Under the pieces are notes generated by a model. That model was not told the DNA's origin. It was given only the letters and a program-made list of their open reading frames with translations, and ran no database searches. Of a stretch of DNA of 64,000 nt, positions 2,274 to 60,548 are shown piece after piece. This stretch comes from Candidatus Poribacteria bacterium. GTDB taxonomy: Bacteria > Poribacteria > WGA-4E > PCPOR2b. The DNA lies in the NCBI GenBank assembly GCA_965222805.1, contig CBDCUX010000005.1, positions 2,978,777-3,042,776 on the forward strand, written 5' to 3'. Every line of letters starts with the position of its first letter. The stretch's first letter is position 1. Made by a program: the position numbers and the translations under genes.

Positions 2274-3101
2274 TTAGAAAAAAGGATTATGTGCTTTTTC
2301 TTCGCCGACTGTTGTGGCGGGCCCGTGTCCGGGAAAGAGCTTTACGTCGTCGGGAAGCGAAAGCAGGTAATTTTTGACCCCGGAGAGCAGATCGGTATAC
2401 GAAATGTTCGCACCCCCGACCGACCCTGCAAATAGTGCGTCACCGACAATCACTGTGGAACGGGTGTGGAAGCTGCAACCGCCGGGCGTGTGTCCCGGTG
2501 TGTCGAGCGTTTTCACGGAGAGTTGACCGACCGACACGTCATCCCCATGATTGAGGAGCCGAAGCTGTTGGGTGCTACGCGGCTGTGGCTCCCGTGCGTG
2601 GATGTATGTCGGGCAGCTCGTCGCCCGTTCGATCTCCATCAAACCGTTCGCATGATCACCGTGTGCGTGCGTCAGCAGAATCATGGTCGGCTTGACGCCG
2701 GTCTCTTCCACCTTCTGCAGCACATCATCTGGATGCGCAGCGGTGTCGATGATAGCAGCTTCGTTGGTCGCTTTGCACACTAAGAGGTACGCATGAACGG
2801 GCCATCCACCGACATCGGCTGTGATGGTGACGACCTCCAGCGCGTCGTCGTATCCTGGTGGGACCGGTTCGGGGCCCCAGCGTTCCATCGCAATATCCGC
2901 CAACCTTTCGCCGTTGAGATTGAGGCACACTGCGATTTTGTGGACCTGTTCCTCTGTCGGTTTCAGCGTGTAGTCTTCCATCTGGGACAGTTGTGCCTCT
3001 GCGAGTCCTGCTTGGGTTGCAACTTCACCCACGCTCAGACCGTTCCCTCGCCTTGCTTTTCCGATGATGTCGCCAAATTCGTCTTCAAGTGTGTAAGCCA
3101 T
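2274..3101 (-). CDS. MBL-fold metallo-hydrolase with N-terminal XRE-type HTH domain
   Basis: N-terminal GLSVGEVATQAGLAEAQLSQME (HTH). C-terminal part carries the metallo-beta-lactamase motif LLTHAHGDHANG plus TPGHTPG. RBS AAGGAG upstream of ATG at 3101. Confidence 0.75.
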   Translation of the reverse strand: MAYTLEDEFGDIIGKARRGNGLSVGEVATQAGLAEAQLSQMEDYTLKPTEEQVHKIAVCLNLNGERLADIAMERWGPEPVPPGYDDALEVVTITADVGGWPVHAYLLVCKATNEAAIIDTAAHPDDVLQKVEETGVKPTMILLTHAHGDHANGLMEIERATSCPTYIHAREPQPRSTQQLRLLNHGDDVSVGQLSVKTLDTPGHTPGGCSFHTRSTVIVGDALFAGSVGGANISYTDLLSGVKNYLLSLPDDVKLFPGHGPATTVGEEKAHNPFF

Positions 3102-3126
3102 TGTTGATTATCTCCTTTGTTAGGGA

Positions 3127-3354
3127 TTATGGTAGATTTTAGAATTACTTAGACCCTCCCAATGCACAGCCAACCCCCTAAATCCCCAACTCCCCTGACA
3201 AGGGGACTCCCCCTGATAAGGGGGTAGGGGGGTTAGGGGAGCTTCTCCTCTTGTCTTTCCCCTCTTATCAGAGGGGTTCAGGGGGACTTTGGAAACTTCG
3301 CTAGGGTCGGAGTTATTGGCAAATGTCTACTTATTTCTCTAGTTCACCATAAAT
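3127..3354. repeat. MITE-like element, family A copy 1 (about 228 bp) with imperfect terminal inverted repeats
   Basis: Left end TTATGGTAGATTTTAGAA, right end TTCTCTAGTTCACCATAAAT (reverse complement TTTATGGTGAACTAGAGAA). Internal C-rich/G-rich hairpin modules CCCCTGACAAGGGG and CCCCCTGATAAGGGGG. Near-identical copies at 7463-7722 and 26177-26383, variant at 24848-24975. Confidence 0.8.
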
Positions 3355-3414
3355 AAAAAACCGAAGAAACCGAGTTTTGCCGAAAAAACTCGGTTTCTCT
3401 GAGCTGCTTTTCGC

Positions 3415-6261
3415 TTATTTTGGTTCACTCAACCCAGAAGTGTGCTCGTGTATGCGCTGACGCTCGAGATTCGCATATGGGTCAGCGCGACGGGTGATGC
3501 CGGTGATAGCATCAACGGATTCATCTGCCTTAAACCGCAGATACAGTTTCTGTTCCTTCGCAGCCATCACCTCATTTCTGAGTGCACGATAGCACAGCAT
3601 CATGTTGTAGTGAGCATCTAGATCCTCCGGATCGACCGCTAGCGTTTTCTGGAATTCGGTGAGTGCGGCTTCATACTTCCGCTGAAGGTAGAGCAGTCTG
3701 CCCATCTCGTTGCGAACCCGTCGATCTCGCGGGAATTGGAGAGTAGCTGCCCGCAGGTGTTCAAGCGCGTCGTCATATTTTCCGTACGCCTTTTGGACCA
3801 GTGCGTAGAGGTAGTGCACCTTCGCTCGATGCGGATTGTCGGGGGAAAGTTGTTTCTGGAGGGTCATCGCTTTTTCAAGCATCTCCTCAGCCCCGTTCAT
3901 ATCGCCCTCCTGAATGCGACACCGTGCGACGTTGACCCACCCGTCCATATAGGTCGGTTCAATCTCCGTGACCTTCAGGAATACCGCTTCCGCGCCCTTG
4001 AGATCGCCTTGAAGGAATAGCCCGATACCGTAGTCATTCCAACGTTCACGGTGGTTCGATTGCGGGTTCTCACCTGAACCTCCGATTGCCGGTTCATTTG
4101 GTTCACCCCGGTCGACCACCCGCAAGGTTGCTATATCCTCTGCCATGGGAATAATTGGCAGGTTAGGAATTTCCTTAATTTTCCCAGCGACATCCGATGT
4201 ATCTCCCGTGAAGACCCAACGCCCATTGTCATACCCTTTACCAACCTGAAAATCGGCATCCTCCGGATCTCGCACCCCTGCATAAGCCCACTGCGTATGC
4301 CACCAGTTGAATTTGCGGTAATTCAACTTTGCGTGCAGATGAACCTCATCCCCACAATCCGGTGGAATGAAGAGGCGGTAGTGGACGGTATCCGCAGCAC
4401 CGGGGGGAATGGTGTTCGCATAGAGGACAGTCCGCGCCGCCCACGCATTGCGTTTATTAATAAGATTTCCGTGTTCGTCCAACATATACGCCCGATAAAA
4501 GTGTGCCCCCGGATCAACGGGTCCGTTTCCATCTTCCGCTTCAATCCGCCCACTCCAGAAGATTACCTTTCCGTTTTCATCCGTCGCCTTCAATTCCAAC
4601 CAGATATCGAAGGCATCAATTGTACCGGCGGGGAATCGGTGCCCCACTTCCCTTGTACGAACAACTACATCAACCCGAACCTCCTCACCACGCTGAACCG
4701 TTGGGTTGGAACCGTTGATAGGTGCGACAAGCTTTGTTATGTCGGTTACCGTGCCGATAGCGTGCCCCTGATTTCCGCCATCCATCATGCTAAAGGTGCG
4801 GAGTTGAGAGCTGGAGGACGCGCTGACACCGCCTTCTAACCCACCATGGGATTGGATCGGTGTTGCGGGACTTAGCGCGAAAATATCCACGCTCACTTGG
4901 TTATTCTGGAGAAATTCAGTGGTCACCTTGAGTTGTTCGTCGTGCTTGTTCACGAAAGGAAGCGCCGTATTCGCCGCGGGAAAGCGGTGGCTATGAACCT
5001 TGCCGTCGATATTCGCCGCATCTTTCGAGGAAATTAGTGGCATGTGGCAATCGGTGCACTTCTTCGGTTCTTCAGGGTAGTAGAAAGACAACGCCCCCTG
5101 ATGAGAGACCCCGCTGGTCTGCCACTGATCGTAGTCGTCAAAGCCACGGAACCATCGGAAATTGTTGACCGGCACATCGAGGTGCACCTTGTGACAGGTG
5201 GAGCAAAACTCTGCGGTGTTCTGGCGATGGAATGGCTTGAGGAAACTTTTTTTGTGGGGTTCTGGATCTAGGCGGATAAGGTAATTATGGAGTGTGCGAA
5301 TTGCAGGATTTTCGCTAGCGGCCATCTCATGTAGGGGTGGGTACTTGATGACGTATCCGCTGTTTCCCATCGTATCTTTGACCTTTTCCATTGAGTGGCA
5401 CGCCGTACACGCGAGCCCGGCTTGGGCGGCAGGCGTATGCAAATTCTCCCGGATCGGTCGATCCATCACGCCGTTCAGCAAGATAGCAGGGTCGTGACAG
5501 CCACCGCACCATTTGGAGGGTTGAATCCCATTGACATCCTGCATATACATGATCGATTTGCGATACCACTGATTGTTAAAGGAGGCGAAGTGATGCGCCG
5601 ATTCGTGCCACTGTTTGTAGATGTCCGGGTGGCAGCCGCTTTCAGCACAGGTTTGGGAGGTCAAGAAGAAATCGGTGGGAATCAGATCGCCGGTATAGGT
5701 CTCGACGGAAGCGGGGAAGAACGGTCCATCGGTGCCGCCGCCTTCCTCATACATACTAGTCGGCGGAGAGAGTGGATTTTTTACGAGATAGTCGGGGTTG
5801 GGTCGATAGTGTTGGATTAATCTTGCCCCAACGGGAAACAGCAGGCTGATAAGGAGAACGATTCCGGCGATTTGCGCTGCTTTGCGTGAAAACTCCGTCT
5901 CCGCTCGTCTCCCCAAAATCAACAGGTGTCCGACAAATAGGATTGTACCGAGCGTCACTGCCACGATATGGAGGATGAGCAGCCAGCGGTTGGGGGTCGT
6001 GGCACCGACGAACATCAGGTACACGCCTGAAATCGCCCCGACTCCCAGAGAAACCACCCCGCCTTTGCCGATAATTGACATGCCGGCGAAGCGCTTGTAC
6101 AGATAAACAATAAACGGGATAATCAGTGCAGCCCCGAGGACGATGTGGATCAGGACGTTCCCGATATAAAATAGGGTCGGCTCTCCGAAGCTGATTAGAT
6201 ATGCACTGTTAATCAGCAGGATTAGGAAACCGAGCAGTAGGAGTTTTGTCCAGAGTCGCAT
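3415..6261 (-). CDS. Multiheme c-type cytochrome with N-terminal transmembrane segments and C-terminal TPR repeats
   Basis: Four canonical CxxCH motifs (CGGCH, CTACH, CSTCH, CTDCH) plus one CX4CH. Hydrophobic N-terminal 150 aa. C-terminal third has TPR-like helices (AHYNMMLCYRALRNEVMAAKE..). Confidence 0.7.
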   Translation of the reverse strand: MRLWTKLLLLGFLILLINSAYLISFGEPTLFYIGNVLIHIVLGAALIIPFIVYLYKRFAGMSIIGKGGVVSLGVGAISGVYLMFVGATTPNRWLLILHIVAVTLGTILFVGHLLILGRRAETEFSRKAAQIAGIVLLISLLFPVGARLIQHYRPNPDYLVKNPLSPPTSMYEEGGGTDGPFFPASVETYTGDLIPTDFFLTSQTCAESGCHPDIYKQWHESAHHFASFNNQWYRKSIMYMQDVNGIQPSKWCGGCHDPAILLNGVMDRPIRENLHTPAAQAGLACTACHSMEKVKDTMGNSGYVIKYPPLHEMAASENPAIRTLHNYLIRLDPEPHKKSFLKPFHRQNTAEFCSTCHKVHLDVPVNNFRWFRGFDDYDQWQTSGVSHQGALSFYYPEEPKKCTDCHMPLISSKDAANIDGKVHSHRFPAANTALPFVNKHDEQLKVTTEFLQNNQVSVDIFALSPATPIQSHGGLEGGVSASSSSQLRTFSMMDGGNQGHAIGTVTDITKLVAPINGSNPTVQRGEEVRVDVVVRTREVGHRFPAGTIDAFDIWLELKATDENGKVIFWSGRIEAEDGNGPVDPGAHFYRAYMLDEHGNLINKRNAWAARTVLYANTIPPGAADTVHYRLFIPPDCGDEVHLHAKLNYRKFNWWHTQWAYAGVRDPEDADFQVGKGYDNGRWVFTGDTSDVAGKIKEIPNLPIIPMAEDIATLRVVDRGEPNEPAIGGSGENPQSNHRERWNDYGIGLFLQGDLKGAEAVFLKVTEIEPTYMDGWVNVARCRIQEGDMNGAEEMLEKAMTLQKQLSPDNPHRAKVHYLYALVQKAYGKYDDALEHLRAATLQFPRDRRVRNEMGRLLYLQRKYEAALTEFQKTLAVDPEDLDAHYNMMLCYRALRNEVMAAKEQKLYLRFKADESVDAITGITRRADPYANLERQRIHEHTSGLSEPK

Positions 6262-7462: not shown

Positions 7463-7722
7463 CTATGGGAGATTTTAGAATTACTTAGACACTTCCAATG
7501 AACAGCCAACCCCCCTAAATCCCCCTTATCAGGGGGACTTGATAATTAATCCCCCAACTCCCCTGACAAGGGGACTCCCTCTGATAAGGGGGCAGGGGGG
7601 GTTAGGGGAGCTTCTCCCTTGTCTTTCCCCTCTTATCAGAGGGGTTCAGGGGGACTTTGGAAACTTCGTGAAGGTCGGAGTTATTGGTAAATGTCTACTT
7701 ATTTCTCTAGTTCACCATAAAT
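7463..7722. repeat. MITE-like element family A copy 2 (about 260 bp, carries an extra internal hairpin module)
   Basis: Same termini and core as 3127-3354, plus an inserted module CCCCCTTATCAGGGGGACTTGATAATTAAT shared with family B. Its right end abuts the RBS (AAGGAG) and ATG of the PhyH gene at 7741. Confidence 0.8.
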
Positions 7723-8646: not shown

Positions 8647-8741
8647 TTTTGGGCAACCACAACGGTTACCCCTATATTGGGTCAATTTCTCTAGGGGTTG
8701 GGTTTCCCAACCCCTAGGGCGAGGGAACCTCGCGCCTACAA
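8647..8741. repeat. Cluster of three REP-like palindromes ending in CTAT/CCTAC
   Basis: GGGCAACCACAACGGTTACCC-CTAT, then CTAGGGGTTGGGTTTCCCAACCCCTAG (12-bp perfect stem), then GCGAGGGAACCTCGCGCCTAC. Confidence 0.65.
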
Positions 8742-10358: not shown

Positions 10359-11276
10359 CTAATTCTCAAGCACACTTCGTTCAGGCACAAAGCCGAGTTC
10401 TTCCTCGATTCGGTTGATCTCGTACACTGGATCTCTTTCATGTCCGGGGCGTGTGTAGTGGGAAAGATCTATCTGATCGGCATCCGCACCATACCATCCA
10501 CGAATAATATCGGGGACAGTATCCTCGGCGCAGGCTTGTGCTCCCACCGCGTTCAGGATGCGAACCCCCGGTTTATGCGAGGCTTCGGCGGCAAGCGTCA
10601 AACAGCGCACCGTATCGCTGAGGTACATGTATGAAATCGACCCCATCGACCACTGTCCTACCGGTCCCACCTTTCTGGGAGTCAATTCACGGTCGTCGGG
10701 GGCAATGCTCGCTAGGCGGATGTTAATAAAGTCCAGATCCTCATTCTGACGCGCCAGATAGCGCGAGACCTCCTCCATCATATACTTCGAGAAGCCGTAT
10801 CCCACGCGATCGAGACAGGGGTGTTCGTCGGGCATCGGTAATTGCAGGGGTCTGAACAGGGGAGACTGAAATCCGACAGCTGCAATCGAACTGGCGAGAA
10901 CGAATTTCTTGCAGCCGCCATCCACAAAGTATCGCACGAGTTGGTGTGTGCCCATAACATTGACCCGGAGTTGTTCCGCTTCGGTTCCGCCCCCCGTTAC
11001 CGCCGCGAGATGAACTACGACATCAACCCCGTAGGGATCTAATTTCTGTAGGTCGTCGGGCGATGTAAAATCGCCTTGCACTGCTGTTACGCCCTCTACT
11101 TCTGTCTCTTGCCTAGAGATACAGAAAACTTCGTGGCCTTTCGCCATTGAACCCGCGAGTGCACACCCGATAAATCCGCTGGTGCCAGTGATTAGGACTC
11201 TACTCATCTTACACTCCTTCTTTTGAACTTGTTCAGGTTGCAGGGAGTCCGTAGGTCGAGTTTCCATACTCGACAC
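10359..11276 (-). CDS. NAD-dependent epimerase/dehydratase family (SDR) protein
   Basis: N-terminal ITGTSGFIGCAL glycine-rich NAD(P)-binding motif. 305 aa. Confidence 0.7.
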   Translation of the reverse strand: MSSMETRPTDSLQPEQVQKKECKMSRVLITGTSGFIGCALAGSMAKGHEVFCISRQETEVEGVTAVQGDFTSPDDLQKLDPYGVDVVVHLAAVTGGGTEAEQLRVNVMGTHQLVRYFVDGGCKKFVLASSIAAVGFQSPLFRPLQLPMPDEHPCLDRVGYGFSKYMMEEVSRYLARQNEDLDFINIRLASIAPDDRELTPRKVGPVGQWSMGSISYMYLSDTVRCLTLAAEASHKPGVRILNAVGAQACAEDTVPDIIRGWYGADADQIDLSHYTRPGHERDPVYEINRIEEELGFVPERSVLEN

Positions 11277-11285
11277 TTACTAGAG

Positions 11286-11663: not shown

Positions 11664-11671
11664 CAATAACA

Positions 11672-11842
11672 GGACTTACGCAAATTTAGTATGCGGCACG
11701 AGATTTTTCTGTTTTTAACCCCCTAAATCCCCCTTATCAGGGGGACTTGATAACTAACCCCCTAACCCCCCTGCCCCCTTATCAGGGGGAGTCCCCTTGT
11801 CAGGGGAGTTGCAGGGGACTTATGAACCAACTGCGTAAGTCC
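11672..11842. repeat. MITE-like element family B copy 1 (terminal inverted repeats GGACTTACGCA)
   Basis: Left GGACTTACGCAAATTTAG, right GAACCAACTGCGTAAGTCC (reverse complement GGACTTACGCAGTTGGTTC). The core shares CTAAATCCCC, CCCCCTTATCAGGGGG and CCCCTTGTCAGGGG modules with family A. Second copy at 37866-38006. Confidence 0.75.
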
Positions 11843-12888: not shown

Positions 12889-12916
12889 CGTCGAGATATA
12901 AATCTCGACCTACAGG
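12889..12916. repeat. REP-like palindrome GTCGAGATATAAATCTCGAC followed by CTAC
   Basis: Near-identical to 42388-42412 (GTCGAGATATGAATCTCGACCTAC). Confidence 0.6.
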
Positions 12917-12933: not shown

Positions 12934-15900
12934 TTAAAAACGCGGCAGTTCATGCGTCACGTGGCGTGTGTTGTATTCAAGTTGATAGCGGAGGTACGCG
13001 GGATCCTGTGGGTAATTTTCCGCATCGGGATACGGATAGACAGACATGTCGTGGAATGGTAGGGGTCCAACTGTCTGCGAAGACAGTGTATTGATATCGC
13101 CATCTTTATCCCATCCGTCGCTGTAGAGGATGAAATCTCGCTCCCAACCCTCTTCCAATGGCGGCAGGTTGTCGGCATCGAACTCGACAGTCATCTCGTC
13201 GCCTGCGTTCAAGATGACATACATATCGTCAATCTCCTCCAGCAGGGGTGTCACTTCTCCGTGCCGGGTGTAATACCCCGCCAGATCTCGCCACTGCTTC
13301 GTTGTTACAACTTCATTGTAATCAAACAGATGCGGCGCGTGAGGGGTCGGGCGATACATCTTAGAAAAGCCGCGGTAGTGGAGGTCTGCGTGATTCGGAA
13401 GCAGCGTCGTGATACGGGTCGGCACGTCCTGCTCGCCGATTGTGAAAAACGCTGAATCCCAGTAAATCTGCATATCGGTTGTAATTTTTACCTCCCGATC
13501 CTCCGACAGGAATTTGCCCGTTAGATCGATGCAGATAGTCTTGTTTTTACCCGCCGGAATGCCAATGGGGTCGATGACTGTCTGCCACTCTCCATTTTCA
13601 TCACGAACTTGTAGGTAAGGAAAAATAGGGTTAATTGATGGATTCTGCGAGAGTGCTACATTGATACTGGTATCAGTTGGGAAGATCCAGCCGGTGAGGA
13701 ATAAAGTTAGCTGCAGGTCATCACGCACGTCCCCTAAATCGAGAACGATGAAGTGGGGATCAACGACACCTTGGAATGCCCCCGGTTCGTGTTCAATCGC
13801 ATAGCGATAATCGGTCGCTTTGAGTGCATCGGAGATATCGTATCCATGGTGGTCGAGTGCCGTGTATGGACGATGAATCTCTTTCGCCGCGTAGATCTTG
13901 AACTCTGGAAACGGCGGTGGGGTATACTTCTCATCGACGAAGATTTGTGTCCCGGCGGGATGGTCTATGGCAAGCAGCTTGACCATATCAAAATAGGCGG
14001 TCTCCCAGAGTTCCTCTGTAATCTGAAGCGAATAGACTCCTGCCTTCGGCTTCATGAGTTCACCGGGAATTTTGACGTAATCTGCGGTTTCAGCGGGTGC
14101 GAGAAATCCCATTGGTGTGACCATCCCAAGCGGGCTGCGCCACAGCAGATCTGTTACGAACTGATAACCACCACCGTCATAAACGTAGAGGAATGGACAC
14201 GACCCTTTTAACACCTGCTTTTCGAGGATGCGCTGGTTTGACTTGGGGGTGATGACATTTTGTGGAACGCCGTTTGTCCAGACAACCCGCAGTACATCTG
14301 CCTGTTGCTCTTTTCCCAAACCGAAATGCGTTATCGGGTCGGTAATGTATTTTATCTGGTAGAGTTCCCCAACCTTGAGTTCCACTTTGGCACCAATACC
14401 GTCAATGTTGTTCTTGTTGTTACCGGCGTTGACACCCTCTAACTTCACTTGCAGCCAACTGTTTTGATCCCCACCCTCGTTGCGCAGCACTACCACTCTA
14501 CCATCGAGGTCAATCAGGAAGAGGTCAAGGTCTCCGTCGTTGTCATAATCGCCAACGGTCCCGTCACCGCCGCTCCGAATTGTATCAGGCAGGAGATTTG
14601 AGGCGTCGGTGAAGCGACCTGTCCCATCGTTCCGAAACAGGAAAACGCCACGCCCCTCCGCTTCTCGTGGCACACCGATAAGCCACAGATCCAAAAAACC
14701 GTCGTTGTCATAATCGAGGAAATGGACATCTGAACCGCGCACACCTTCTGCGGCGTTAATAGCCTCCTCAGACGAACGCACATCGGGGGCAAAGGTGCCA
14801 TCGCCGCGGTTTCGATAGAGCTGATGAGGAGTTTCACCATCGGTTGTTAGAACCAGGTCAATATCGCCATCGTTATCGTAGTCACCGACTGCAACCGCTG
14901 TGAAAGAATAGTTTTGGGATAACCCTATTTCATCGGTCAACGCCTCCATTTTTCCTTGACGTAGGTTTGTGTAGAGGGTACAGCCACTCCCGTCATTTAT
15001 GATCAGCAGGTCAGTATCGCCATCATCGTCAAAATCGCCGATCCCTGCATCCCGTGCACCGGGGCGTTCCGGTGGGATAAAGGTCTGATCGCTGACATCG
15101 CTGAAAACACCATCCCCATTGTTGCGACGCATTTCCACCCGGTCGTCCGTTGCGAACAGATCCAGATCGCCGTCATGGTCATAATCGACAAACAGGGTTG
15201 GTTTGCTGTTCTTTGAATCCTGATCCGGTTGGGCGACGGTAGACTCTGTCATCTCGGTAATTTCCGTGAAGCTGCCCGCTCCATCATTGCGGAGAAAGAT
15301 AGGTCCCTTGTCTCCGGACAGACAGAGATCCGGGTCGCCATCCTTATCGATATCAGCGAAGGCGGCGGTGCCTCCCCGGTGCCCGATTTGTGCAGCGGGG
15401 ACAAATTCTCCACCTTCGTTCCGAAAGAGATTAGGTGTAGCGTTTAATACAACGGAGGGGATATACAGATCGAGATCGCCCTCGTTATCGTAGTCTGTCA
15501 GGAGAATGTTGGAACGTTCTCCGTTCAGGTCGGCAAGCCCGATTTCCTGAGTCAAATCGGCAAAGCTAATCTCGATTGGTGGTGTCTGCTTTGCTTTCAC
15601 TCGTGCCTTGAACCCGGGGCTGAATTCTTCGATTGGATGCCCCAAGATGTTCGTCACTAACTCTCCGATCCCCTGTTGATAGCGGGGACTTCGCTTTTGG
15701 ACGTTCTCAAAAATTTGAATATATCGGGCTGCCCCTTTGGCGTCGCCTTGGTCTATCAAAACCAGCCCCTGTTTCAGATACTTCAGGAACTCTTCATCGG
15801 CGTCCCACAGCAGGGCATTCAGCTCCATGCAGATCCGCTTCGCTTCCTCAAGTTGTTCCCGCCGTAAAAGTGAATTTGCCAACTTGAGCACCACCACCAC

Positions 15901-16443
15901 ATTCGCTGGGGTCCTCCCACGCAACGCCCGCAGGTGGGAAATCGCTTTATCCGTTGCCTCCGGGCTATCCCGCTGACCCAGATAGTGGCGCACCAGTTCA
16001 TAGCGCACTTCGAGGTCGTCGGGTGCAAGTTTCACTGCCTCCAGAATAGCGGCAACTGCTTCCGCCGCTTTCCCTTGCGATTGATAGATCTCCGCCGAGA
16101 TGAAATGTAACCGGCTATCCATCGGTTCAACCTCAAGCCCATGTTTGACCCACGTTTCCGCTTCCTCACGTTGCTTGAGGCGTAGATGCGCGACGGCGAG
16201 GTTGCCGTAACCGATCGATTCGTCGGGTACTAAGTTGACAAGTCCCTGAAATTGCTCAATCGCTTGATGCGGTTGGGATTCTTCGAGATAAGCCAATCCA
16301 AGGTTCTGGTGACGAATCGCGGATGTGACGATTTCGTCAGCGGTCTGTTGCGAGTTGGCAGTTGGGATGCATAGGAGCAGTAAAACGTGAAGTATGAAAC
16401 ATGATAAGAGAAGATTGATTGGTTTAGGAGTAGAGAAGTTCAT
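12934..16443 (-). CDS. CRTAC1-family protein: signal peptide, TPR repeats, FG-GAP/VCBS repeats, ASPIC/UnbV C-terminal domain
   Basis: 1169 aa. Repeated DYDNDGDLDL / GDFDDDGDTDL calcium-binding FG-GAP-like motifs. N-terminal TPR helices. The C-terminal roughly 400 aa is beta-rich, as in ASPIC/UnbV. Confidence 0.7.
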   Translation of the reverse strand: MNFSTPKPINLLLSCFILHVLLLLCIPTANSQQTADEIVTSAIRHQNLGLAYLEESQPHQAIEQFQGLVNLVPDESIGYGNLAVAHLRLKQREEAETWVKHGLEVEPMDSRLHFISAEIYQSQGKAAEAVAAILEAVKLAPDDLEVRYELVRHYLGQRDSPEATDKAISHLRALRGRTPANVVVVLKLANSLLRREQLEEAKRICMELNALLWDADEEFLKYLKQGLVLIDQGDAKGAARYIQIFENVQKRSPRYQQGIGELVTNILGHPIEEFSPGFKARVKAKQTPPIEISFADLTQEIGLADLNGERSNILLTDYDNEGDLDLYIPSVVLNATPNLFRNEGGEFVPAAQIGHRGGTAAFADIDKDGDPDLCLSGDKGPIFLRNDGAGSFTEITEMTESTVAQPDQDSKNSKPTLFVDYDHDGDLDLFATDDRVEMRRNNGDGVFSDVSDQTFIPPERPGARDAGIGDFDDDGDTDLLIINDGSGCTLYTNLRQGKMEALTDEIGLSQNYSFTAVAVGDYDNDGDIDLVLTTDGETPHQLYRNRGDGTFAPDVRSSEEAINAAEGVRGSDVHFLDYDNDGFLDLWLIGVPREAEGRGVFLFRNDGTGRFTDASNLLPDTIRSGGDGTVGDYDNDGDLDLFLIDLDGRVVVLRNEGGDQNSWLQVKLEGVNAGNNKNNIDGIGAKVELKVGELYQIKYITDPITHFGLGKEQQADVLRVVWTNGVPQNVITPKSNQRILEKQVLKGSCPFLYVYDGGGYQFVTDLLWRSPLGMVTPMGFLAPAETADYVKIPGELMKPKAGVYSLQITEELWETAYFDMVKLLAIDHPAGTQIFVDEKYTPPPFPEFKIYAAKEIHRPYTALDHHGYDISDALKATDYRYAIEHEPGAFQGVVDPHFIVLDLGDVRDDLQLTLFLTGWIFPTDTSINVALSQNPSINPIFPYLQVRDENGEWQTVIDPIGIPAGKNKTICIDLTGKFLSEDREVKITTDMQIYWDSAFFTIGEQDVPTRITTLLPNHADLHYRGFSKMYRPTPHAPHLFDYNEVVTTKQWRDLAGYYTRHGEVTPLLEEIDDMYVILNAGDEMTVEFDADNLPPLEEGWERDFILYSDGWDKDGDINTLSSQTVGPLPFHDMSVYPYPDAENYPQDPAYLRYQLEYNTRHVTHELPRF

Positions 16444-16456
16444 ATTTCTATTGCCT

Positions 16457-16546
16457 GAGAAGGACGCAGATCCGCGTTCTCTACGAATTGCCTACGTTGC
16501 GCTAACCCGCTTAGACTTTGGGTCGGGCAAGATGTCCGACCTACAG
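16457..16546. repeat. REP-like palindromes (GGACGCAGATCCGCGTTCT-CTAC and GTCGGGCAAGATGTCCGAC-CTAC)
   Basis: Same CCTAC-terminated hairpin architecture as the other REP copies. Confidence 0.6.
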
Positions 16547-23848: not shown

Positions 23849-23872
23849 GGAACGCGGGTCCGCGTTCCCTAC
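23849..23872. repeat. REP-like palindrome GGAACGCGGGTCCGCGTTCC followed by CTAC
   Basis: 8-bp perfect stem, located between convergent genes. Confidence 0.6.
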
Positions 23873-24847: not shown

Positions 24848-24975
24848 TTATGGTAGATTTCAGAATTAATTAGACACCGTGGACAAGCGAGGTCAGTAAC
24901 CTTGTACGCAGAGTTACGGCACACGGAGTGTGCCTACTACTTTTAATGTCCATTTATTTTTAGAATTCACCATAG
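24848..24975. repeat. MITE family A variant copy (about 128 bp) with internal REP-like module
   Basis: Termini TTTATGGTAGATTTCAGAATTAATTAGACA ... TTTAGAATTCACCATAG match family A. The interior is replaced by GTTACGGCACACGGAGTGTGCCTAC, related to the 35178-35198 REP. It is followed at 24982-25006 by REP GGAACAACGATCGTTGTTCC-CTAC. Confidence 0.7.
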
Positions 24976-25071
24976 AAGCAAGGAACAACGATCGTTGTTC
25001 CCTACAGCCTCCCATCTTATTGGGGCGAATCCCTTGCTAATTGGTTGTTTTAGAAACAGGAGGAGAGATAT

Positions 25072-26176: not shown

Positions 26177-26383
26177 TTATGGTAGATTTCAGAATTAATT
26201 AGACATCCCCAATGCACAGCCAACCCCCTAAATCCCCCAACTCCCCTGACAAGGGGAGAAGATAAGAGGGGAGCTTCTCCCTTGTCTTTCCCCTCTTATC
26301 AGAGGGGTTCAGGGGGACTTTGGAAACTTCGCTAGGGTCGGAGTTATTGGTAAATGTCTACTTATTTTTCTAATTCACCATAG
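26177..26383. repeat. MITE-like element family A copy 3
   Basis: Same termini and core as 3127-3354. Its 5' end (TTATGGTAGATTTCAGAATTAATTAGACA) is identical to the variant copy at 24848. Confidence 0.8.
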
Positions 26384-27468: not shown

Positions 27469-28362
27469 CTAAGAACCTGTTTTAAAAAGAAAAACACTAC
27501 TCAAGCGTTAATGTTTACGTTTAATCATTGGAGGAGTCCATACTGACCCAATGAAAGGCATAAACATGACCCGAACAAACTATCCCACGGATTTGACCGA
27601 TGCCCAGTGGGAAAACCTATTACCCTATCTGCCAAAACCTTCACCATTAGGCAGACCTCTCAAGTGGGAGATGCGCTCAGTTATCAACGCTATGTTTTAC
27701 ATAGTCAAGTCAGGGTGTCAATGGCGAATGCTTCCTTATCAGATGCCACCGTGGCAAACGGTCTATTCCCACTTTAGAAAGTGGAAAGCCTTAGGTACAT
27801 GGCTTATGATTCATCAAGCACTTCATGAACAAACCCGTTGTGATATTGGCAAAGCACCCTCACCGACAGTAGCTATCATTGACAGTCAATCGGTCAAGAC
27901 GACTGAACTGGCAAATAGTAGGGGGTTTGATGCGCATAAGAAAGTCAAAGGCCGTAAACGTCATATAGTCACCGATACGATTGGCATTCCATTGGGAGTC
28001 GAGGTTACTGATGCCAATGTCAGTGATAACCAAGTCGCAATAGAGTTACTGACAGAAATCTTTAGTTGGCACATAACGATTCAGTTAGTCTGTGCTGATG
28101 CTGGCTATCGTGGCGAATTAGGCGACTATTTATACTTGACGCATCAGTGTCGATTGGAAATCGCTCCACCTCTTGGGCAATCGGGGTTTGTGGTTGTCCC
28201 ATTGCGCTGGATTGTGGAACGCACCTTTTCTTGGTTCGGTTGGTTTCGCCGATTGACTTTGGACTATGAACGCTCGGCTGAGACCGCTGAGGCGATGGTG
28301 TACATTGCTTCCATTTACTTGATGCAAAATCGTATCAAATGACTTTTAAAACAGGTTCTAAG
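27469..28362 (+). mobile_element. IS5-family insertion sequence (about 894 bp) with 19-bp terminal inverted repeats
   Basis: Left inverted repeat CTAAGAACCTGTTTTAAAA (27469-27487) and right inverted repeat TTTTAAAACAGGTTCTTAG (28344-28362) are exact reverse complements. Single transposase ORF inside. Confidence 0.8.
27551..28342 (+). CDS. IS5-family DDE transposase
   Basis: DAQWE..LLP...GRP.....V.NA..Y....GC.WR.LP, ..IDSQSVK.., ..ADAGY.. are conserved blocks of IS5/IS4-type transposases. 263 aa. Confidence 0.8.
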   Translation: MKGINMTRTNYPTDLTDAQWENLLPYLPKPSPLGRPLKWEMRSVINAMFYIVKSGCQWRMLPYQMPPWQTVYSHFRKWKALGTWLMIHQALHEQTRCDIGKAPSPTVAIIDSQSVKTTELANSRGFDAHKKVKGRKRHIVTDTIGIPLGVEVTDANVSDNQVAIELLTEIFSWHITIQLVCADAGYRGELGDYLYLTHQCRLEIAPPLGQSGFVVVPLRWIVERTFSWFGWFRRLTLDYERSAETAEAMVYIASIYLMQNRIK

Positions 28363-28406
28363 TGAATCATACCCTCAAAAATTTGTGTGCAGAGGAGATC
28401 TCACTA

Positions 28407-29489
28407 ATGAAATCGACCCAATTTCCCATACTAATTGTTTTGGTCCTTTCAATTGTAATAGTCGTCCTAGTTATTTTGACTATAGCTCGACCATCTCTAT
28501 TTCAGCCAGACATTTTCGTCCAAGATTCTCAGGAATTGAGTTTGCCTGAAGGTGCTAGAGCCCACCTCAGTAAGGGTGAAATAAATGAGATAGCCTATTC
28601 TCCCGATAGTAGTCGTCTCGCAGTTGCCAGTTCTATCGGGGTTTTGATACATGATGCACGAACCGGTGAAGAACTGAGGCGACTCAAGGGACATAGGGCA
28701 GAGGTCTATAGCGTCGCGTTTAGCCCGGATGGCAGCATCCTCGCCAGTGGGGCTGGAGACGATACCGTCCGTCTGTGGGATGCAGTCACGGGTAAGCACA
28801 AACGAACACTCAAAGGGCATTCAGCCTATAGTGTGGCATTCAGTCCAGATGGTAGCACGCTTGCAAGCGGGAGTGCGGACCAAACCAGCCGTCTGTGGGC
28901 TGTTCTGCGACAACTTCTCAGTTACAACGGGGGAATGGGTGCGGACCAAACCATCCATCTGTGGGATGTCGCCACAGGTGAATCCAAGGGGGTGCTCACA
29001 GGACATGCAGCACAAGTTACGAGCATCGCTTTCAGTCCAGATGGCGGGACTCTTGCGAGTGGGGGTAGTGACGGCAGAGTGCGGTTGTGGGATGGCATCA
29101 CAGGGGAGCATCTCAAAAATCTCACTGGTCATGGTCAGCTGTGGTTCATCTGGGACTTAGCGTTCAGTCCGGATGGCAGCACCCTCGCATGTGCAACCTT
29201 TGACGGGGTGAAATTCTGGGATGTTGTCACAGGACAGGCCACAACTTCATTTGCAGGGGAGGCTGTGATGGGTATTGCGTATAGTCCAAATGGCACTACC
29301 CTTGCAAGTGGGGGTGACGACGACGACCCCACCATCCGTCTGTGGGATGTCGCCACAGGCGTTCACAAGCAAACACTCACTGGTCATGGTCAGTGGTTCA
29401 TCTGGGACTTAGCGTTCAGTCCGGATGGCAGCACCCTCGCAAGCGGGTCACGGGACGGAACGTTGCTCCTGTGGGACTTGCACCGATAA
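28407..29489 (+). CDS. WD40-repeat beta-propeller protein, paralog 1 (N-terminal signal anchor)
   Basis: Repeated AFSPDGS.LASG..D.T.RLWD units. Start set at ATG 28407 (GAGGAG RBS), because the longer track ORF begins inside the IS right inverted repeat. Contains an in-frame partial duplication (GCGGACCAAACCAGCCGTCTGTGGG / GCGGACCAAACCATCCATCTGTGGG). Confidence 0.7.
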   Translation: MKSTQFPILIVLVLSIVIVVLVILTIARPSLFQPDIFVQDSQELSLPEGARAHLSKGEINEIAYSPDSSRLAVASSIGVLIHDARTGEELRRLKGHRAEVYSVAFSPDGSILASGAGDDTVRLWDAVTGKHKRTLKGHSAYSVAFSPDGSTLASGSADQTSRLWAVLRQLLSYNGGMGADQTIHLWDVATGESKGVLTGHAAQVTSIAFSPDGGTLASGGSDGRVRLWDGITGEHLKNLTGHGQLWFIWDLAFSPDGSTLACATFDGVKFWDVVTGQATTSFAGEAVMGIAYSPNGTTLASGGDDDDPTIRLWDVATGVHKQTLTGHGQWFIWDLAFSPDGSTLASGSRDGTLLLWDLHR

Positions 29490-29638
29490 AGGGCGTCAAC
29501 GAGGAGGGGATTATAAACCTCCTCGATTTTGGTGCTGTAATAACCCAAGCTGTTCTAACCTACACCCATTCACAATCGAAGTTGACTTACCCATTCCAAG
29601 TACCGGCGTGGCATTTTTGCGACGGCGGTGTAGCATAG
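29490..29638 (+). pseudogene. Out-of-frame remnant of dockerin-like repeat and T9SS-type tail downstream of WD40 paralog 1
   Basis: The frame after the stop reads GVNEEGIINLLDFGAVITQ..., homologous to DVNRDGVVNAQDLVIVAARFG of paralog 2. It is separated from the WD40 ORF by a stop codon. Confidence 0.4.
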
Positions 29639-29882
29639 TTTCGACATCCTCTTTGTAAATACAACCCTCCCTTTGAAATCACAACGCATGTCAAAAGTAG
29701 ATGCAAAGTTGCCCGGAGAGCGGATTTGCCGACACACGCGGTTTTTTGCACAATACGCTTCGCATGATTTAGGATAATTGTGGTATCGAAATTGCGTATG
29801 GTTAATGTACCAATTGAATTTCGCTCGGCAACGATTCGCGTTAATCTTATCCAGTGCCATTAAAATGTCAATAGGACCTATA

Positions 29883-31367
29883 ATGAAAACAATGCAATTT
29901 TCTATACTCACGCTTATCCTTGGGATGATCCTGTTTTTACCAAACACCTTTGCCCAAGATTACACGCGATGGGGTCTACCTGAAGGTGCCAAAGCCCGTC
30001 TTGGTAAAGGACGGATATCTGGTAATATTGCGTATTCTCCTGATGGTGCTCTGCTCGCTGTTGCCAGTAGTATCGGTATTTGGCTCTATGATACGGGGAC
30101 CTATCAAGAGGTTGCCCTGCTCACTGGGCATACGAATCGGGTCTATAGTGTTGCGTTTAGCCCGGATGGGAACACACTCGCAAGTGGTGGAGGGAGGCAG
30201 GCCATGACATCACTACGGCTGTGGGATGTTACTACAGGACAGTCCATAGCCACACTCACAGGGCATGAGTGGGTGATCTATAGCGTTGCGTTTAGCCCGG
30301 ATGGGAACACACTCGCAAGTGGGAGTGGGGACGATACCATCCGCCTATGGGATGTCGTCACGGGCGAACACAAGCAGACACTCACCGGGCATACGGGTTC
30401 GGTCAGGAGCGTTGCGTTCAGCCCGGATGGAAACACGCTGGCAAGTGGGAGTTCGGACGATACTATCCGTCTGTGGGATGTCGTCACAGGCGAACACAAG
30501 CAGACACTCACCGGGCATACGGGTTCGGTCAGGAGCGTTGCGTTCAGCCCGAATGGGAACACGCTCGCTAGTGGAAATACGGACGGAACTATCCATCTGT
30601 GGGATACCGTGACGGGGGCAAATCAACGGACCTTCACTGGACATACAAGGCTGGTCAGGAGCACCGCGTTTAGCCCGGATGGCACCACACTGGCAAGTGG
30701 GAATGAGGATGGCACGGTGCTTCTGTGGGAACTTAGCCCCACAGCGGCACCACAACTGCTCGGGGATGTCAACCGCGATGGTGTGGTGAACGCCCAAGAT
30801 TTAGTGATCGTTGCTGCGCGGTTTGGGCAGAGGGAACAGAATGGTGCTGATGTCAATGGGGATGGAGTTGTCAATATTTTCGATCTTGTCATGGTCGCTG
30901 GGCTGCTTAGCGATACGGCAGCCGCGCCTTCGGCGCATCCACAGTTACTGGCAAGGCTCACCGTTGCGGAAGTCGAGGATTGGATCAACCAAGCGCAGGG
31001 GTTAGCCCTCACGGATGCAACTTTGCAAAGAGGAGTTCTCTTTCTTGAACATTTGCTCGCGGCGTTGACCCCGACAAAGAATGCCCTGTTGCCTAACTAC
31101 CCGAATCCGTTCAATCCAGAGACGTGGATGCCGTATCAACTCGTTCACGCTGCCGATGTCCAAGTCACCATTTATGACACAAAGGGCGCGATGGTGCGTC
31201 AATTAGATTTGGGGCATCAGCCTGCAGGATATTACACGGATCGGTCAAAGGCGGCGTATTGGGACGGGTACAATGGGAGTGGTGAATCGGTGGCAAGCGG
31301 GGTCTATTTCTATCAACTCCGGGCGGAGGATTATTCAGCCACGAGACGGATGGTAATCGTCAAGTAG
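29883..31367 (+). CDS. WD40-repeat protein paralog 2 with C-terminal dockerin-type repeats and T9SS C-terminal sorting domain
   Basis: Signal peptide (MKTMQFSILTLILGMILFLPNTFAQ), WD40 repeats, two DVN(G/R)DGVVN..DL dockerin-like repeats, then NYPNPFNPETW...GVYFYQLRAEDYS..RRMVIVK matching the Por/T9SS C-terminal-domain consensus. Confidence 0.75.
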   Translation: MKTMQFSILTLILGMILFLPNTFAQDYTRWGLPEGAKARLGKGRISGNIAYSPDGALLAVASSIGIWLYDTGTYQEVALLTGHTNRVYSVAFSPDGNTLASGGGRQAMTSLRLWDVTTGQSIATLTGHEWVIYSVAFSPDGNTLASGSGDDTIRLWDVVTGEHKQTLTGHTGSVRSVAFSPDGNTLASGSSDDTIRLWDVVTGEHKQTLTGHTGSVRSVAFSPNGNTLASGNTDGTIHLWDTVTGANQRTFTGHTRLVRSTAFSPDGTTLASGNEDGTVLLWELSPTAAPQLLGDVNRDGVVNAQDLVIVAARFGQREQNGADVNGDGVVNIFDLVMVAGLLSDTAAAPSAHPQLLARLTVAEVEDWINQAQGLALTDATLQRGVLFLEHLLAALTPTKNALLPNYPNPFNPETWMPYQLVHAADVQVTIYDTKGAMVRQLDLGHQPAGYYTDRSKAAYWDGYNGSGESVASGVYFYQLRAEDYSATRRMVIVK

Positions 31368-31423
31368 AACCATCAAGGCTTACCTGAATGGTAAACAAAT
31401 TTTCAGAAAAGGAGCACTTTAAG

Positions 31424-35075: not shown

Positions 35076-35198
35076 GGGCGGGGGAACCCCGCCCCTACGG
35101 TTTCTGTGCGCGGTTTCTTGGCATGAGATACAACAATATGTAGGCATGTCCGTATGCCGCAATTTTCACAAGGGTTACGGCATACGGAGTATGCCTAC
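35076..35198. repeat. REP-like elements: GGGCGGGGGAACCCCGCCC-CTAC plus an inverted REP pair (GTAGGCATGTCCGTATGCCG ... CGGCATACGGAGTATGCCTAC)
   Basis: 8-bp perfect stem at 35076-35100. A roughly 20-bp arm inverted repeat at 35140-35198 with a GTAG head and CTAC tail. Confidence 0.65.
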
Positions 35199-35204
35199 GT
35201 GCGC

Positions 35205-35905
35205 CATGATGTAATGTAATATACAACAGACTTTGATTCTGTCATGGAAACTTACTCCATATGAGTCTTACCCTAACCGCGTTGCTGGAAACAGCAGGGT
35301 AAAAAGCAAGGGAAAATGGCTTAGAAAACAATGAATGTAGACATCGACTATGAGCCCGACTAAACTGGCATGGTGAGTCAACCAACTGATGTCTGAAGCC
35401 TCGTGAACTCCAAACAGGTGAATCTACAAAGGGGACAGGCTTGGAAACCTGTCTGACAAGCCTGTAGCCAAAAGGCATGAGCTGATGATACTACATTGTA
35501 GGTATGTAGTGTTAGTAAGTCAATCGCTTCGGGGTAAAGTCAGCACCTAATCCAGTTATTGTGTATTACATGAGAATCATGGAGTCCCTAAGTCGTCTCA
35601 TTTGAGAAGATAAGGGAGAGGAGGACAGGTAGGTAGCTGAGTCCGATACTCACCTGTGCGATATGTAATGTATTAAACAGTTTACCAAGCATGTCCAGTA
35701 TTGTATACAGCATGGCTTGTATCAGTAAGACAGCAACAGGCGAAAATACCAGAAGGCTGGGTCGCTTTTGTTTTACAACCAGCAAGGCAAACTCTATACA
35801 ATAGGGAAAGCCGTGTGCGGTGAAAGTCGAACGCACGGTTTGGAAGCAGGGAAAATGCCGTGAGGCATCTACCTATGCTTACTACTATAAAGTTATTGTG
35901 ACGCG
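35205..35905. other. Roughly 700-bp ORF-free, lower-GC intergenic segment with several stable hairpins; candidate structured ncRNA or decayed gene
   Basis: No ORF of at least 60 aa on the plus strand; the minus-strand ORFs have implausible sequences. Hairpins include UACCCU..GCUG-GAAA-CAGC..AGGGUA (GNRA tetraloop) at about 35268-35312 and GACAGG-CUUGGAAA-CCUGUC at about 35434-35454. Confidence 0.3.
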
Positions 35906-37843: not shown

Positions 37844-37865
37844 TTTATTTATCCTTACCTCTTCA

Positions 37866-38006
37866 GGACTTACGCAAATTTAGGACGCGGCGCAAGATTT
37901 TTTTATTTTTAACCCCCTAAATCCCCAACCCCCCGGCCCCCTTATCAGGGGGAGACCCCTTGTCAGGAGAGTTACAGGGGGACTTATGAACCAACTGCGT
38001 AAGTCC
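37866..38006. repeat. MITE-like element family B copy 2
   Basis: GGACTTACGCAAATTTAGG ... GAACCAACTGCGTAAGTCC. Lies directly 3' of an MDR alcohol dehydrogenase gene, as does copy 1. Confidence 0.75.
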
Positions 38007-39068: not shown

Positions 39069-39091
39069 GGACAACGATCGTTGTGCCCTAC
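39069..39091. repeat. REP-like palindrome GGACAACGATCGTTGTGCC-CTAC
   Basis: Same family as 24982-25006 and 60524-60548. Confidence 0.6.
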
Positions 39092-42286: not shown

Positions 42287-42413
42287 GGGCAGGCACAAGA
42301 CCTGCCCCTACATTTGGTCCATTCCTATAGGGGCATCCCTTATGGTTGCCCTACTGTAGGTCGATTTTCCAAAATCGACAGTTTTGTGTCGAGATATGAA
42401 TCTCGACCTACTA
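42287..42413. repeat. Cluster of REP-like palindromes, including a head-to-head CCTACTGTAGG pair
   Basis: GGGCAGGCACAAGACCTGCCC-CTAC; CCCTACTGTAGG (two opposed GTAG heads); TCGATTTTCCAAAATCGA; GTCGAGATATGAATCTCGAC-CTAC. Confidence 0.65.
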
Positions 42414-43707: not shown

Positions 43708-43735
43708 GTAGGGAGCGCAGATCCGCGTTCCCTAC
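43708..43735. repeat. REP-like palindrome flanked by GTAG and CTAC (GTAGGGAGCGCAGATCCGCGTTCCCTAC)
   Basis: Both strands present the GTAG head. Confidence 0.6.
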
Positions 43736-60471: not shown

Positions 60472-60523
60472 GGTTCTAACCCTCCTCAAATCATTAGCTG
60501 TTGATTATTGAAAATGGTAGGTA

Positions 60524-60548
60524 AGGAACAACGATCGTTGTTCCCTAC
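60524..60548. repeat. REP-like palindrome GGAACAACGATCGTTGTTCC-CTAC
   Basis: Perfect 20-bp palindrome identical to 24982-25001. Confidence 0.65.

Follow-up and report, generated by a model that had tools for sequence, protein, structure and literature searches.

A 64-kb window of the genome of a Candidatus Poribacteria bacterium (64,000 nucleotides; assembly GCA_965222805.1, contig CBDCUX010000005.1, positions 2,978,777 to 3,042,776) contains about 20 small hairpins carrying the GTAG tag of classic bacterial repetitive extragenic palindromic (REP) elements. The curated copies belong to at least seven stem classes, are nearly all intergenic, and occur in tail-to-tail (TT), head-to-head (HH), and clustered arrangements. 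These hairpins, including double-foot forms and inverted pairs, are most probably the cognate DNA of REP-associated tyrosine transposases (RAYTs, also termed TnpAREP) of subclass 2.4, which corresponds to Bertels Group 4. An earlier note had proposed a RAYT-driven REP system in this lineage, and at the lineage level a GTAG-tagged REP/RAYT system is indeed supported, as RAYT genes with the same REP classes are found in related Poribacteria. We infer that a RAYT moved the copies in the window, that the window's own genome encodes one, and that the system may be active at present.

Read on the + strand, most sites are a GC-rich stem-loop in which the last stem base, usually C, is followed by TAC, giving CCTAC, while on the opposite strand the same sites start with 5'-GTAG and continue into the hairpin. 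The CCTAC pentamer alone is only slightly enriched in the window (92 vs 71.7 ± 8.8 expected). Among the 256 tetranucleotides, CTAC is the commonest hairpin tail (18 vs a mean of 4.1 per tetranucleotide), and the second and third ranks are taken by CCTA and CCCT, which are register shifts of CTAC. Under a slightly stricter rule, hairpin+CTAC was found 16 times, compared with 1.07 ± 1.05 (maximum 4) in 100 dinucleotide-preserving shuffles of the window, a strong enrichment of the kind the earlier note had anticipated. A third, permissive rule listed 28 window matches, 20 of which lie in the 14% of the sequence outside long open reading frames (ORFs); the genic matches are mostly weak, with long loops or mismatches. 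When the window is taken together with 98 Poribacteria loci, 392 of 441 tagged hairpins fall outside long ORFs, vs 17.7% non-coding sequence, the coding and non-coding parts being defined by heuristic ORF calls. Within the window, the copies are strongly asymmetric between strands, with CTAC on the + strand in 13 vs 3 cases by the strict rule and 15 vs 3 in the curated list, independently of the direction of the flanking genes. Across the 98 Poribacteria loci, REP orientation showed a weak relation to local GC skew (35:23 vs 28:45, Fisher p = 0.014), which is confounded by gene orientation and thus not relied upon, and no bias relative to transcription was found in the window and Poribacteria loci (71 vs 58, p = 0.29).

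While the tag is constant, the stems vary, and seven classes can be set apart in the window. Class A has the stem GGAACGCGGrTCCGCGTTCC, class B GGAACAACGATCGTTGTTCC, class C GTCGAGAT..ATCTCGAC (with C2, GTCGATTTT..AAAATCGAC), class D GGGCGGGG..CCCCGCCC (with D2, GGGCAGG..CCTGCCC), class E GGGCGAGG..CCTCGCGC, class F GCAyAC gga GTrTGC, and class G GTCGGGCA..TGTCCGAC. With 6-12 bp in the stem and 2-7 nt in the loop, the units measure 19-28 nt, and as single-stranded DNA (ssDNA) they are predicted to fold at -6.9 to -12 kcal/mol (z between -2.4 and -5.5), leaving GTAG unpaired. Many copies either follow a stop codon at 9-30 nt or separate co-directional or convergent genes. The GTAG-tagged REP superfamily has been described (Di Nocera et al. 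2013) as palindromes of 20-40 bp with a stem of 6-13 bp, a short loop, and an unpaired GT[AG]G at one stem end, mostly extragenic and often downstream of ORFs, present in high copy number genome-wide and frequently arranged as dimers (HH, TT) or in clusters. The window copies agree with this description in their stem-loop, unpaired GTAG, extragenic position, and dimers and clusters, with a TT pair at 42328-42379, an HH pair at 35140-35198, and clusters at 8651-8739 and 42287-42411. As for copy number, the window holds ~20 in 64 kb, and class B occurs at least 42 times in one Poribacteria assembly. No terminator-like T/A run was found on either strand in the 12 nt on each side of hairpin+CTAC at the 14 sites checked, and the sole TTTT near the stems, ahead of 42287, is an A-run if read on the other strand; thus, the hairpins are not classic intrinsic terminators. 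A CRISPR array was also ruled out, as copies of different classes are spread across 52 kb and the repeat search revealed no regular array.

RAYT genes, whose absence from the genome would have counted against the proposal of the earlier note, were found in related Poribacteria contigs and on one complete chromosome, and none was present within the window itself. An hmmsearch of the window ORFs with a profile of three Poribacteria-type RAYTs gave no RAYT, and family scans found no Y1 transposase among the 49 long ORFs of the window (39 and ORF 33330-34988 compared with Pfam, 9 with NCBIfam only). The sole transposase in the window is of the IS4/IS5-family DDE type (27551-28342; DUF4096 and DDE_Tnp_1). 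Using phmmer with E. coli RayT against 4,679 ORFs from the window and the loci, one weak match was obtained (E = 0.005), which proved to be a real RAYT C-terminus at the truncated beginning of locus L011 (Poribacteria chromosome OZ242036.1). This match opened a family of 3,815 homologues at E ≤ 1e-8, several of which are named 'REP element-mobilizing transposase RayT' by their sources.

Poribacteria genes of this family are flanked by REPs of window classes A, B, and F. Locus L116, a metagenome contig, encodes a 181-aa RAYT (4875-5420) that is preceded by GTAGTAGGGAACAACGATCGTTGTTCCCTAT and followed by GACGGGAACAACGATCGTTGTTCCCTAC, i.e., inverted class B REPs in a REPtron-like arrangement, and a third full class B 28-mer lies in frame inside the ORF, where it is read as VGNNDRCSL. 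On the complete Poribacteria chromosome OZ242036.1 (L124), a class A double-foot REP is located 55 bp upstream of a RAYT gene with the class B 28-mer inside its ORF. In L125 (1001-3850), an A-type and a B-type RAYT are arranged in tandem (2501-3061 and 3089-3661), each carrying its own class inside and each preceded by a cluster of class B, F, and B REPs as a repeated unit. Here, REP-coded peptides are also seen at the C-terminal ends of called ORFs. REPtrons, in which a RAYT gene has cognate REPs on its flanks, are thus represented in the related Poribacteria loci L116, L124, and L125. In a further locus, L120, the internal palindrome of the RAYT gene (GAGACGCCATTTATGGCGTCTC) is identical in its 20-nt core to two REPs just downstream. 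The class B 28-mer GTAGGGAACAACGATCGTTGTTCCCTAC is read as VGNNDRCSL (L116, L124, and L123), and class A as VGNADLRSL (L119 and L125). L116 and L119 are syntenic between a CBM9/DUF5916 gene and FUR, where the former has the intact B-type RAYT and the latter an A-type copy with a frame broken near the 5' end, which is probably a pseudogene.

The Poribacteria Y1/HUH transposases carry the motif signature of TnpAREP subclass 2.4. The L116 protein has the motifs NHIH, WQ, and YIQNNP, which are invariant in an alignment of 38 sequences, and for subclass 2.4, NH[IFV]H, WQ, and YIxNNP are given (Table 1, Quentin et al. 2018, PMC6006769). According to the same paper, REPs of this subclass can be double-foot and can be inserted into the gene, in frame, between its HUH and Tyr motifs, and a class A or B REP is found in frame at this position in the Poribacteria RAYTs; the in-frame REP was therefore rejected as a new feature. 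Among family models, only two gave matches, namely NF047646 REP_Tyr_transpos as the best in NCBIfam (E = 8.5e-15, 54.9 bits, cut-off 80) and Pfam Y1_Tnp (21.8 bits, cut-off 23), while precomputed PF01797 matches are recorded for many homologues. A profile of 38 homologues matched a single entry of the PDB, 4ER8, the REP-bound E. coli TnpAREP (E = 2.4e-4). The AlphaFold model (pLDDT 83) likewise has 4ER8_A as its top Foldseek match, with a root-mean-square deviation (rmsd) of 2.5 Å over 159 columns and TM scores of 0.58/0.63, while the TnpA proteins of IS608 and ISDra2 are much poorer structural matches (rmsd 5-10 Å). Thus, the predicted fold is closest to that of E. coli TnpAREP. In the model, residues 89-109 form a disordered loop that contains the REP-coded nonapeptide, and the 21-residue helix alphaC comes next.

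In E. coli, helix alphaC of TnpAREP occupies the lower stem's minor groove, base-specific contacts are made with 5'-GTAG, which is needed for binding and cleavage, and the enzyme cleaves at CT dinucleotides with strand transfer (PMC3479197). Based on the shared fold, motifs, and DNA architecture, we infer that the Poribacteria enzyme and REPs use the same mechanism. By analogy, a REP would fold into a hairpin on transiently single-stranded DNA and be recognized by a monomeric HUH/Tyr nuclease, whose helix alphaC would bind the lower stem while the unpaired 5'-GTAG is read base-specifically. The nuclease would then cut and rejoin single strands nearby, and over evolutionary time copies may spread and be maintained.

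The REPs of the window are not confined to it. The window is syntenic with other Poribacteria chromosomes, with 92% identity to OZ244950.1 and 83-86% to OZ242315.1 and OZ242335.1. Each of classes A-G was found again in other Poribacteria loci (776 kb in total), which were picked solely for holding class B, and the classes are thus genuine repeat families of the lineage; class E, for example, recurs there 16 times. An exact scan for the class B 24-mer, using one genome per species, gave at least 114 stretches in at least 34 assemblies, and among the matches listed were 22 Candidatus Poribacteria metagenome-assembled genomes (MAGs), 9 Nitrospirales/Nitrospira (3 of them complete chromosomes), and 3 Desulfobacterales. 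Syntenic loci cover four REP sites of the window, and at three of them other species have an orthologous copy. The class B copies at 24982 and 60525 are 100% identical at the orthologous sites, while the flanking intergenic DNA diverges. Since three of four comparable sites are conserved, current activity may be low, and, judged by these orthologous positions, most testable copies are old. This fits the picture of long persistence proposed for REPIN-RAYT systems and leaves room for a secondary host role; being old and fixed, many copies probably have an additional use as RNA/DNA structures at 3' ends or between cistrons, or are tolerated as such.

The class B 28-mer is found in identical form in four phyla, and the Nitrospirales copies have flanks unrelated to those in Poribacteria. 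A Candidatus Gracilibacteria RAYT with only 52% protein identity carries it in frame as well. The nine codons are identical at every synonymous site, which argues for constraint or re-insertion at the DNA level. Mis-binning was considered as a cause of the cross-phylum sharing and rejected, as three of the Nitrospirales matches are complete chromosomes and the flanking DNA is unrelated to that of Poribacteria. A scan of viral contigs did not find the class B 24-mer, which leaves a phage vector unsupported. In Desulfobacterales (L018, L026, L031, L053, L064, and L111), the 28-mer lies centrally in an element of ~100 bp with terminal inverted repeats (AGGAATrrGAATTTAATAAyrCC...). Judged from this layout, the palindrome probably spread there as cargo of a MITE (miniature inverted-repeat transposable element).

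Among the RAYT homologues, the class of the internal REP covaries with the helix segment that follows it. Type A reads VGNADLRSL...DRSKMYLSKIVHGF and type B VGNNDRCSL...RNMELLPKIISQY. In 113 scorable homologues of 123 retrieved, VGNNDRCSL is paired with RNMxLLPK in 32, VGNADLRSL with DRSKMYLSK in 24, VGNAYMRSL with RTKM in 11, and VGNRHACSL with RQxQ in 8. Outside a cassette of ~40 residues, which takes in about the first nine residues of alphaC, the similarity of A-type and B-type Poribacteria proteins equals that within a type (0.654 vs 0.657), and nearest neighbours, at 90-96% identity, are often of the other type. The REP and the start of helix alphaC thus appear to swap together as a cassette, for which recombination between tandem paralogues, as arranged in L125, would be the simplest cause. 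It could be speculated, with considerable doubt, that in this RAYT subclass the target is present within the transposase gene itself as a seed copy and that the in-frame REP and the first turns of alphaC form one cassette of ~40 codons, exchanged as a unit and giving lock-and-key specificity. If true, such a linked cassette would allow a specificity switch in one recombination step, and RAYT and REP could travel together between phyla. It could also explain the identical 28-mer in Poribacteria, Nitrospirales, Desulfobacterales, and the Gracilibacteria RAYT.

Several explanations other than a RAYT-linked REP family may be weighed. The probability is negligible that the hairpins are palindromes which arose by chance in GC-balanced intergenic DNA and have CTAC at their end by coincidence. 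Although the mild over-representation of CCTAC and a few genic matches with long loops or mismatches look like chance, this explanation is refuted by the excess over the shuffles, the top rank of CTAC among the 256 tails, and the recurrence of the same stems in other genomes. It is also improbable that the hairpins are host regulatory structures under their own selection, such as 3'-end or intercistronic RNA stabilizers, weak terminators, or protein-binding sites, to which the link with RAYT would be incidental or historical. The frequent location 9-30 nt past stop codons or between co-directional genes is what such structures would lead one to expect, as is the complete conservation of the 24982 and 60525 copies amid diverging intergenic flanks, and the same placement bias is reported for REPs in general (Di Nocera 2013). 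Against this reading, neither a T-run on either strand nor an orientation bias relative to transcription was found at the sites and loci described above. Moreover, a purely host function leaves unexplained the invariant GTAG across unrelated stems and the copies flanking and inside RAYT genes. Such a function is nevertheless compatible with a RAYT-linked REP family as a secondary role.

It is very unlikely that the hairpins were carried by, or are left over from, MITEs mobilized by DDE transposases, e.g., the IS4/IS5 type encoded in the window at 27551-28342, instead of a Y1 enzyme. One class F REP (24914-24937) does lie inside a 127-bp MITE whose ends are shared with three other copies and which is absent in two relatives, and all six of the Desulfobacterales class B 28-mers are central in an inverted-repeat element. 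However, most window REPs have unrelated flanks, lack terminal inverted repeats, and are only 19-28 nt long, the class B copies of Poribacteria and Nitrospirales have non-homologous surroundings, and MITE carriage accounts for a minority of copies. On the same grounds of length and unrelated flanks, the REPs themselves were ruled out as MITEs, which are units of 100-400 bp bounded by terminal inverted repeats, the REP at 24914 being cargo of a true MITE.

Some observations weigh against a RAYT-mobilized REP system in the window as well. No RAYT gene lies within the 64 kb, and the RAYT proteins of the related loci score under the curated cut-offs of both NCBIfam and Pfam, with the domain split by the REP-coded insert. 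The flanking and internal classes do not always correspond; in L124, class A is upstream of a B-type gene, and in L119, a class D-like REP is downstream. Classes C, D, E, and G are without a link to any RAYT. The REPs at 24982 and 60525 do not differ between species that share only 83-92% identity overall, and the copy at 23849 has orthologues that have diverged; such orthologous positions point to ancient fixation rather than recent movement. Finally, the sole clear difference in presence or absence, at 24914, is explained by MITE insertion and not by REP transposition.

The individual copies in the window are described here from left to right, and they lie on the - strand unless stated otherwise. 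Nearly all sites among the 15 or more CCTAC-ended intergenic hairpins of the earlier note are GC-rich stem-loops with CCTAC, and the departures concern individual coordinates and ends. The region 8647-8741 is a cluster of three hairpins, of which only the last has an exact CCTAC. Its first unit is a class D-like REP (GGGCAACC acaac GGTTACCC, 8651..8675) with a degenerate tag, CTAT on the + strand (ending CCTAT); its middle unit is an unstranded palindrome with a perfect 12-bp stem (CTAGGGGTTGGGtttCCCAACCCCTAG, 8691..8717) and CTAG on both sides, and folds were computed for both. The third unit is a class E REP (GGGCGAGG gaa CCTCGCGC + CTAC on the + strand, 5'-GTAG+hairpin on the - strand, 8717..8739). 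The hairpin placed at 11259-11285 is present and tagged, with its coordinates offset, and corresponds to a class C-like REP on the + strand (GTAG+GTCGAGT ttccat ACTCGAC, 11251..11274). A class C REP (GTCGAGAT ataa ATCTCGAC + CTAC, 12890..12913), with a predicted fold of -7.5 kcal/mol (z -4.1), lies 21 nt past a stop codon and 27 nt ahead of the next start. It is followed by a class A-like REP (AGGACGC agatcc GCGTTCT + CTAC, 16461..16484), which ends in TCTAC, and a class G REP (GTCGGGCA aga TGTCCGAC + CTAC, 16522..16544).

Between convergent genes, a class A REP (GGAACGCGG gt CCGCGTTCC + CTAC, 23849..23872) has orthologous, diverged copies in L107 and L038. Next, a class F REP (TTACG GCACAC gga GTGTGC + CTAC, 24914..24937) is inside the 127-bp MITE (24849-24975), which is absent from the orthologous intergenic region of L107 and L038 and thus is a lineage-specific insertion. 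This MITE belongs to a family with common ends (TATGGTAGATTTyAGAATTA... / ...TTCACCATA) and variable cargo, also seen at 3127-3352, 7463-7720, and 26177-26383. Just downstream, a class B REP (GGAACAACG at CGTTGTTCC + CTAC, 24982..25005) is 100% identical to its orthologous copies in two further Poribacteria species. A class D REP (GGGCGGGG gaa CCCCGCCC + CTAC, 35076..35098), whose fold was computed, precedes an inverted pair of class F REPs (35140..35198, unstranded; hairpin+CTAC half on the + strand at 35175-35198). The earlier description of this pair holds, as its GTAG tags are outside and it is predicted to fold as one long, REPIN-like hairpin (-21.3 kcal/mol, z -7.0).

A class B variant with an imperfect stem (GGACAACGATCGTTGTGCC + CTAC, 39069..39091) is located 15 nt past a stop codon. 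The cluster of four REPs that follows begins with class D2 (GGGCAGG cacaaga CCTGCCC + CTAC, 42287..42311) and continues with a REP of the form aTAG GGGCATCC cttat GGTTGCC CTAC (42328..42354), a class C2 REP on the + strand (GTAG+GTCGATTTT cc AAAATCGAC, 42356..42379), and a class C REP (GTCGAGAT atga ATCTCGAC + CTAC, 42388..42411). The middle two form a genuine inverted pair, previously called head-to-head, but in CCTAC-T-GTAGG (42350-42360) the tags are adjacent, making the pair tail-to-tail. The GTAG...CTAC palindrome at 43708..43735, also taken for a pair, is one 28-nt double-foot class A REP (GTAG GGAGCGCAGATCCGCGTTCC CTAC; unstranded) between divergent genes, with a predicted fold of -12 kcal/mol (z -5.5). 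Finally, a class B REP with a degenerate left foot (GTAGGTAA GGAACAACGATCGTTGTTCC CTAC, 60517..60548) lies 9 nt past a stop codon and is kept in L002 and L048.

Other features of the window include a likely ORF-less group II intron at 35199-35882. It starts with GTGCG directly after the CCTAC of the REP pair at 35140-35198 and ends with ...CTATGCTTAC after a match to domain V/VI (Rfam RF00029, 55.3 bits), and in L084, a related copy (409-1097) likewise has a hairpin+TAC ~14 nt ahead of its start. Such a placement is reminiscent of introns homing beside stem-loops. At 11670-11817 and 37864-37980, and also at 3170-3233, there are members of another repeat family, in which hairpins occur in pairs (CCCCCTTATCAGGGGG / CCCCTTGTCAGGGG), the 5' part is common (CAGGACTTACGCAAATTTAG...), and the GTAG tag is missing. 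Three adjacent WD40 beta-propeller genes (28362-33253) have 126-nt periodic DNA repeats, and the FG-GAP/ASPIC repeat proteins encoded at 12934-16443 and 33330-34988 have repeated segments in common. The gene content, with WD40, TPR, and FG-GAP repeat proteins, is a loose fit to Poribacteria. Such repeat proteins are typical of sponge symbionts. Neither a tRNA scan nor an Rfam scan yielded a marker of taxonomy.

GTAG REPs had earlier been reported (PMC3733652) in >80 species representing 8 phyla, Cyanobacteria and Planctomycetes among them, and no literature linking Poribacteria or sponge symbionts to REPs or RAYTs was found. The system is thus a known kind of repeat system in a lineage for which no description was found, and it extends GTAG-REP/RAYT systems to Candidatus Poribacteria, an uncultured phylum of sponge symbionts. 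With ~20 copies per 64 kb and at least seven classes, Poribacteria genomes appear REP-rich, which affects the assembly, binning, and annotation of MAGs, e.g., through REP-coded peptides inside and at the ends of called ORFs. The adjacent A-type and B-type RAYTs with their REPs offer a natural test bed for RAYT-REP specificity, and the sharing of one 28-mer among co-habiting sponge symbionts of three phyla and a bacterium of the candidate phyla radiation bears on whether the inheritance of REP/RAYT systems is strictly vertical.

Among known systems, subclass 2.4 (PMC6006769), i.e., Group 4 RAYTs (Bertels et al. 2017, PMC5581495), has long and double-foot GTAG REPs and has been described mainly in Cyanobacteria and Bacteroidetes. 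The Poribacteria system shares with it the motifs NH[IFV]H, WQ, and YIxNNP, a protein of ~180-190 aa, GT[AG]G at one or both feet of the REP, REPs that flank the gene and also interrupt it in frame between its HUH and Tyr motifs, a copy number of about one to two per genome, and a patchy distribution across phyla. It differs from the published descriptions in its host, as these sponge symbionts are not listed in the papers searched, and in having at least seven co-resident REP classes. Repeat abundance is modest in Group 4, with 14 occurrences of the flanking 16-mer (PMC5581495), compared with the 42 or more class B copies in one Poribacteria assembly. Exchange of an A/B cassette between genes 90-96% identical was not found described for subclass 2.4/Group 4, although no dedicated search was made.

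The REP/bacterial interspersed mosaic element (BIME) system of E. coli with its TnpAREP (subclass 2.2, 4ER8) also has 5'-GTAG at the foot of a GC-rich hairpin, its REPs ending in ...GGCCTAC, as well as extragenic copies in inverted pairs and clusters and a RAYT gene flanked by REPs, and the predicted Poribacteria fold superposes on its enzyme at 2.5 Å rmsd. Yet, the two proteins share only 18% sequence identity, the E. coli motifs are DHLH and YIHYNP, and the E. coli REPs have a bulged long stem and the gene has no internal REP. The IS200/IS605 family (TnpA Y1) resembles the Poribacteria system in the HUH/Tyr fold and, by analogy, in the recognition of a hairpin and a tetranucleotide on ssDNA. 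In contrast, there is no tnpA or tnpB within the repeats, which are 19-28 nt long and not IS ends, the Tyr motif is YIxNNP and not Y---Q, and the fold match to IS608 and ISDra2 is much poorer (rmsd 5-10 Å). The window copies further differ from the REPIN-RAYT system of Pseudomonas (Group 3; Bertels and Rainey 2011) in being mostly singletons or mixed-class clusters and not uniform REPIN doublets, and in the RAYT subclass, while the inverted pair at 35140-35198, which forms one long hairpin, and the long vertical persistence at fixed sites are features common to both.

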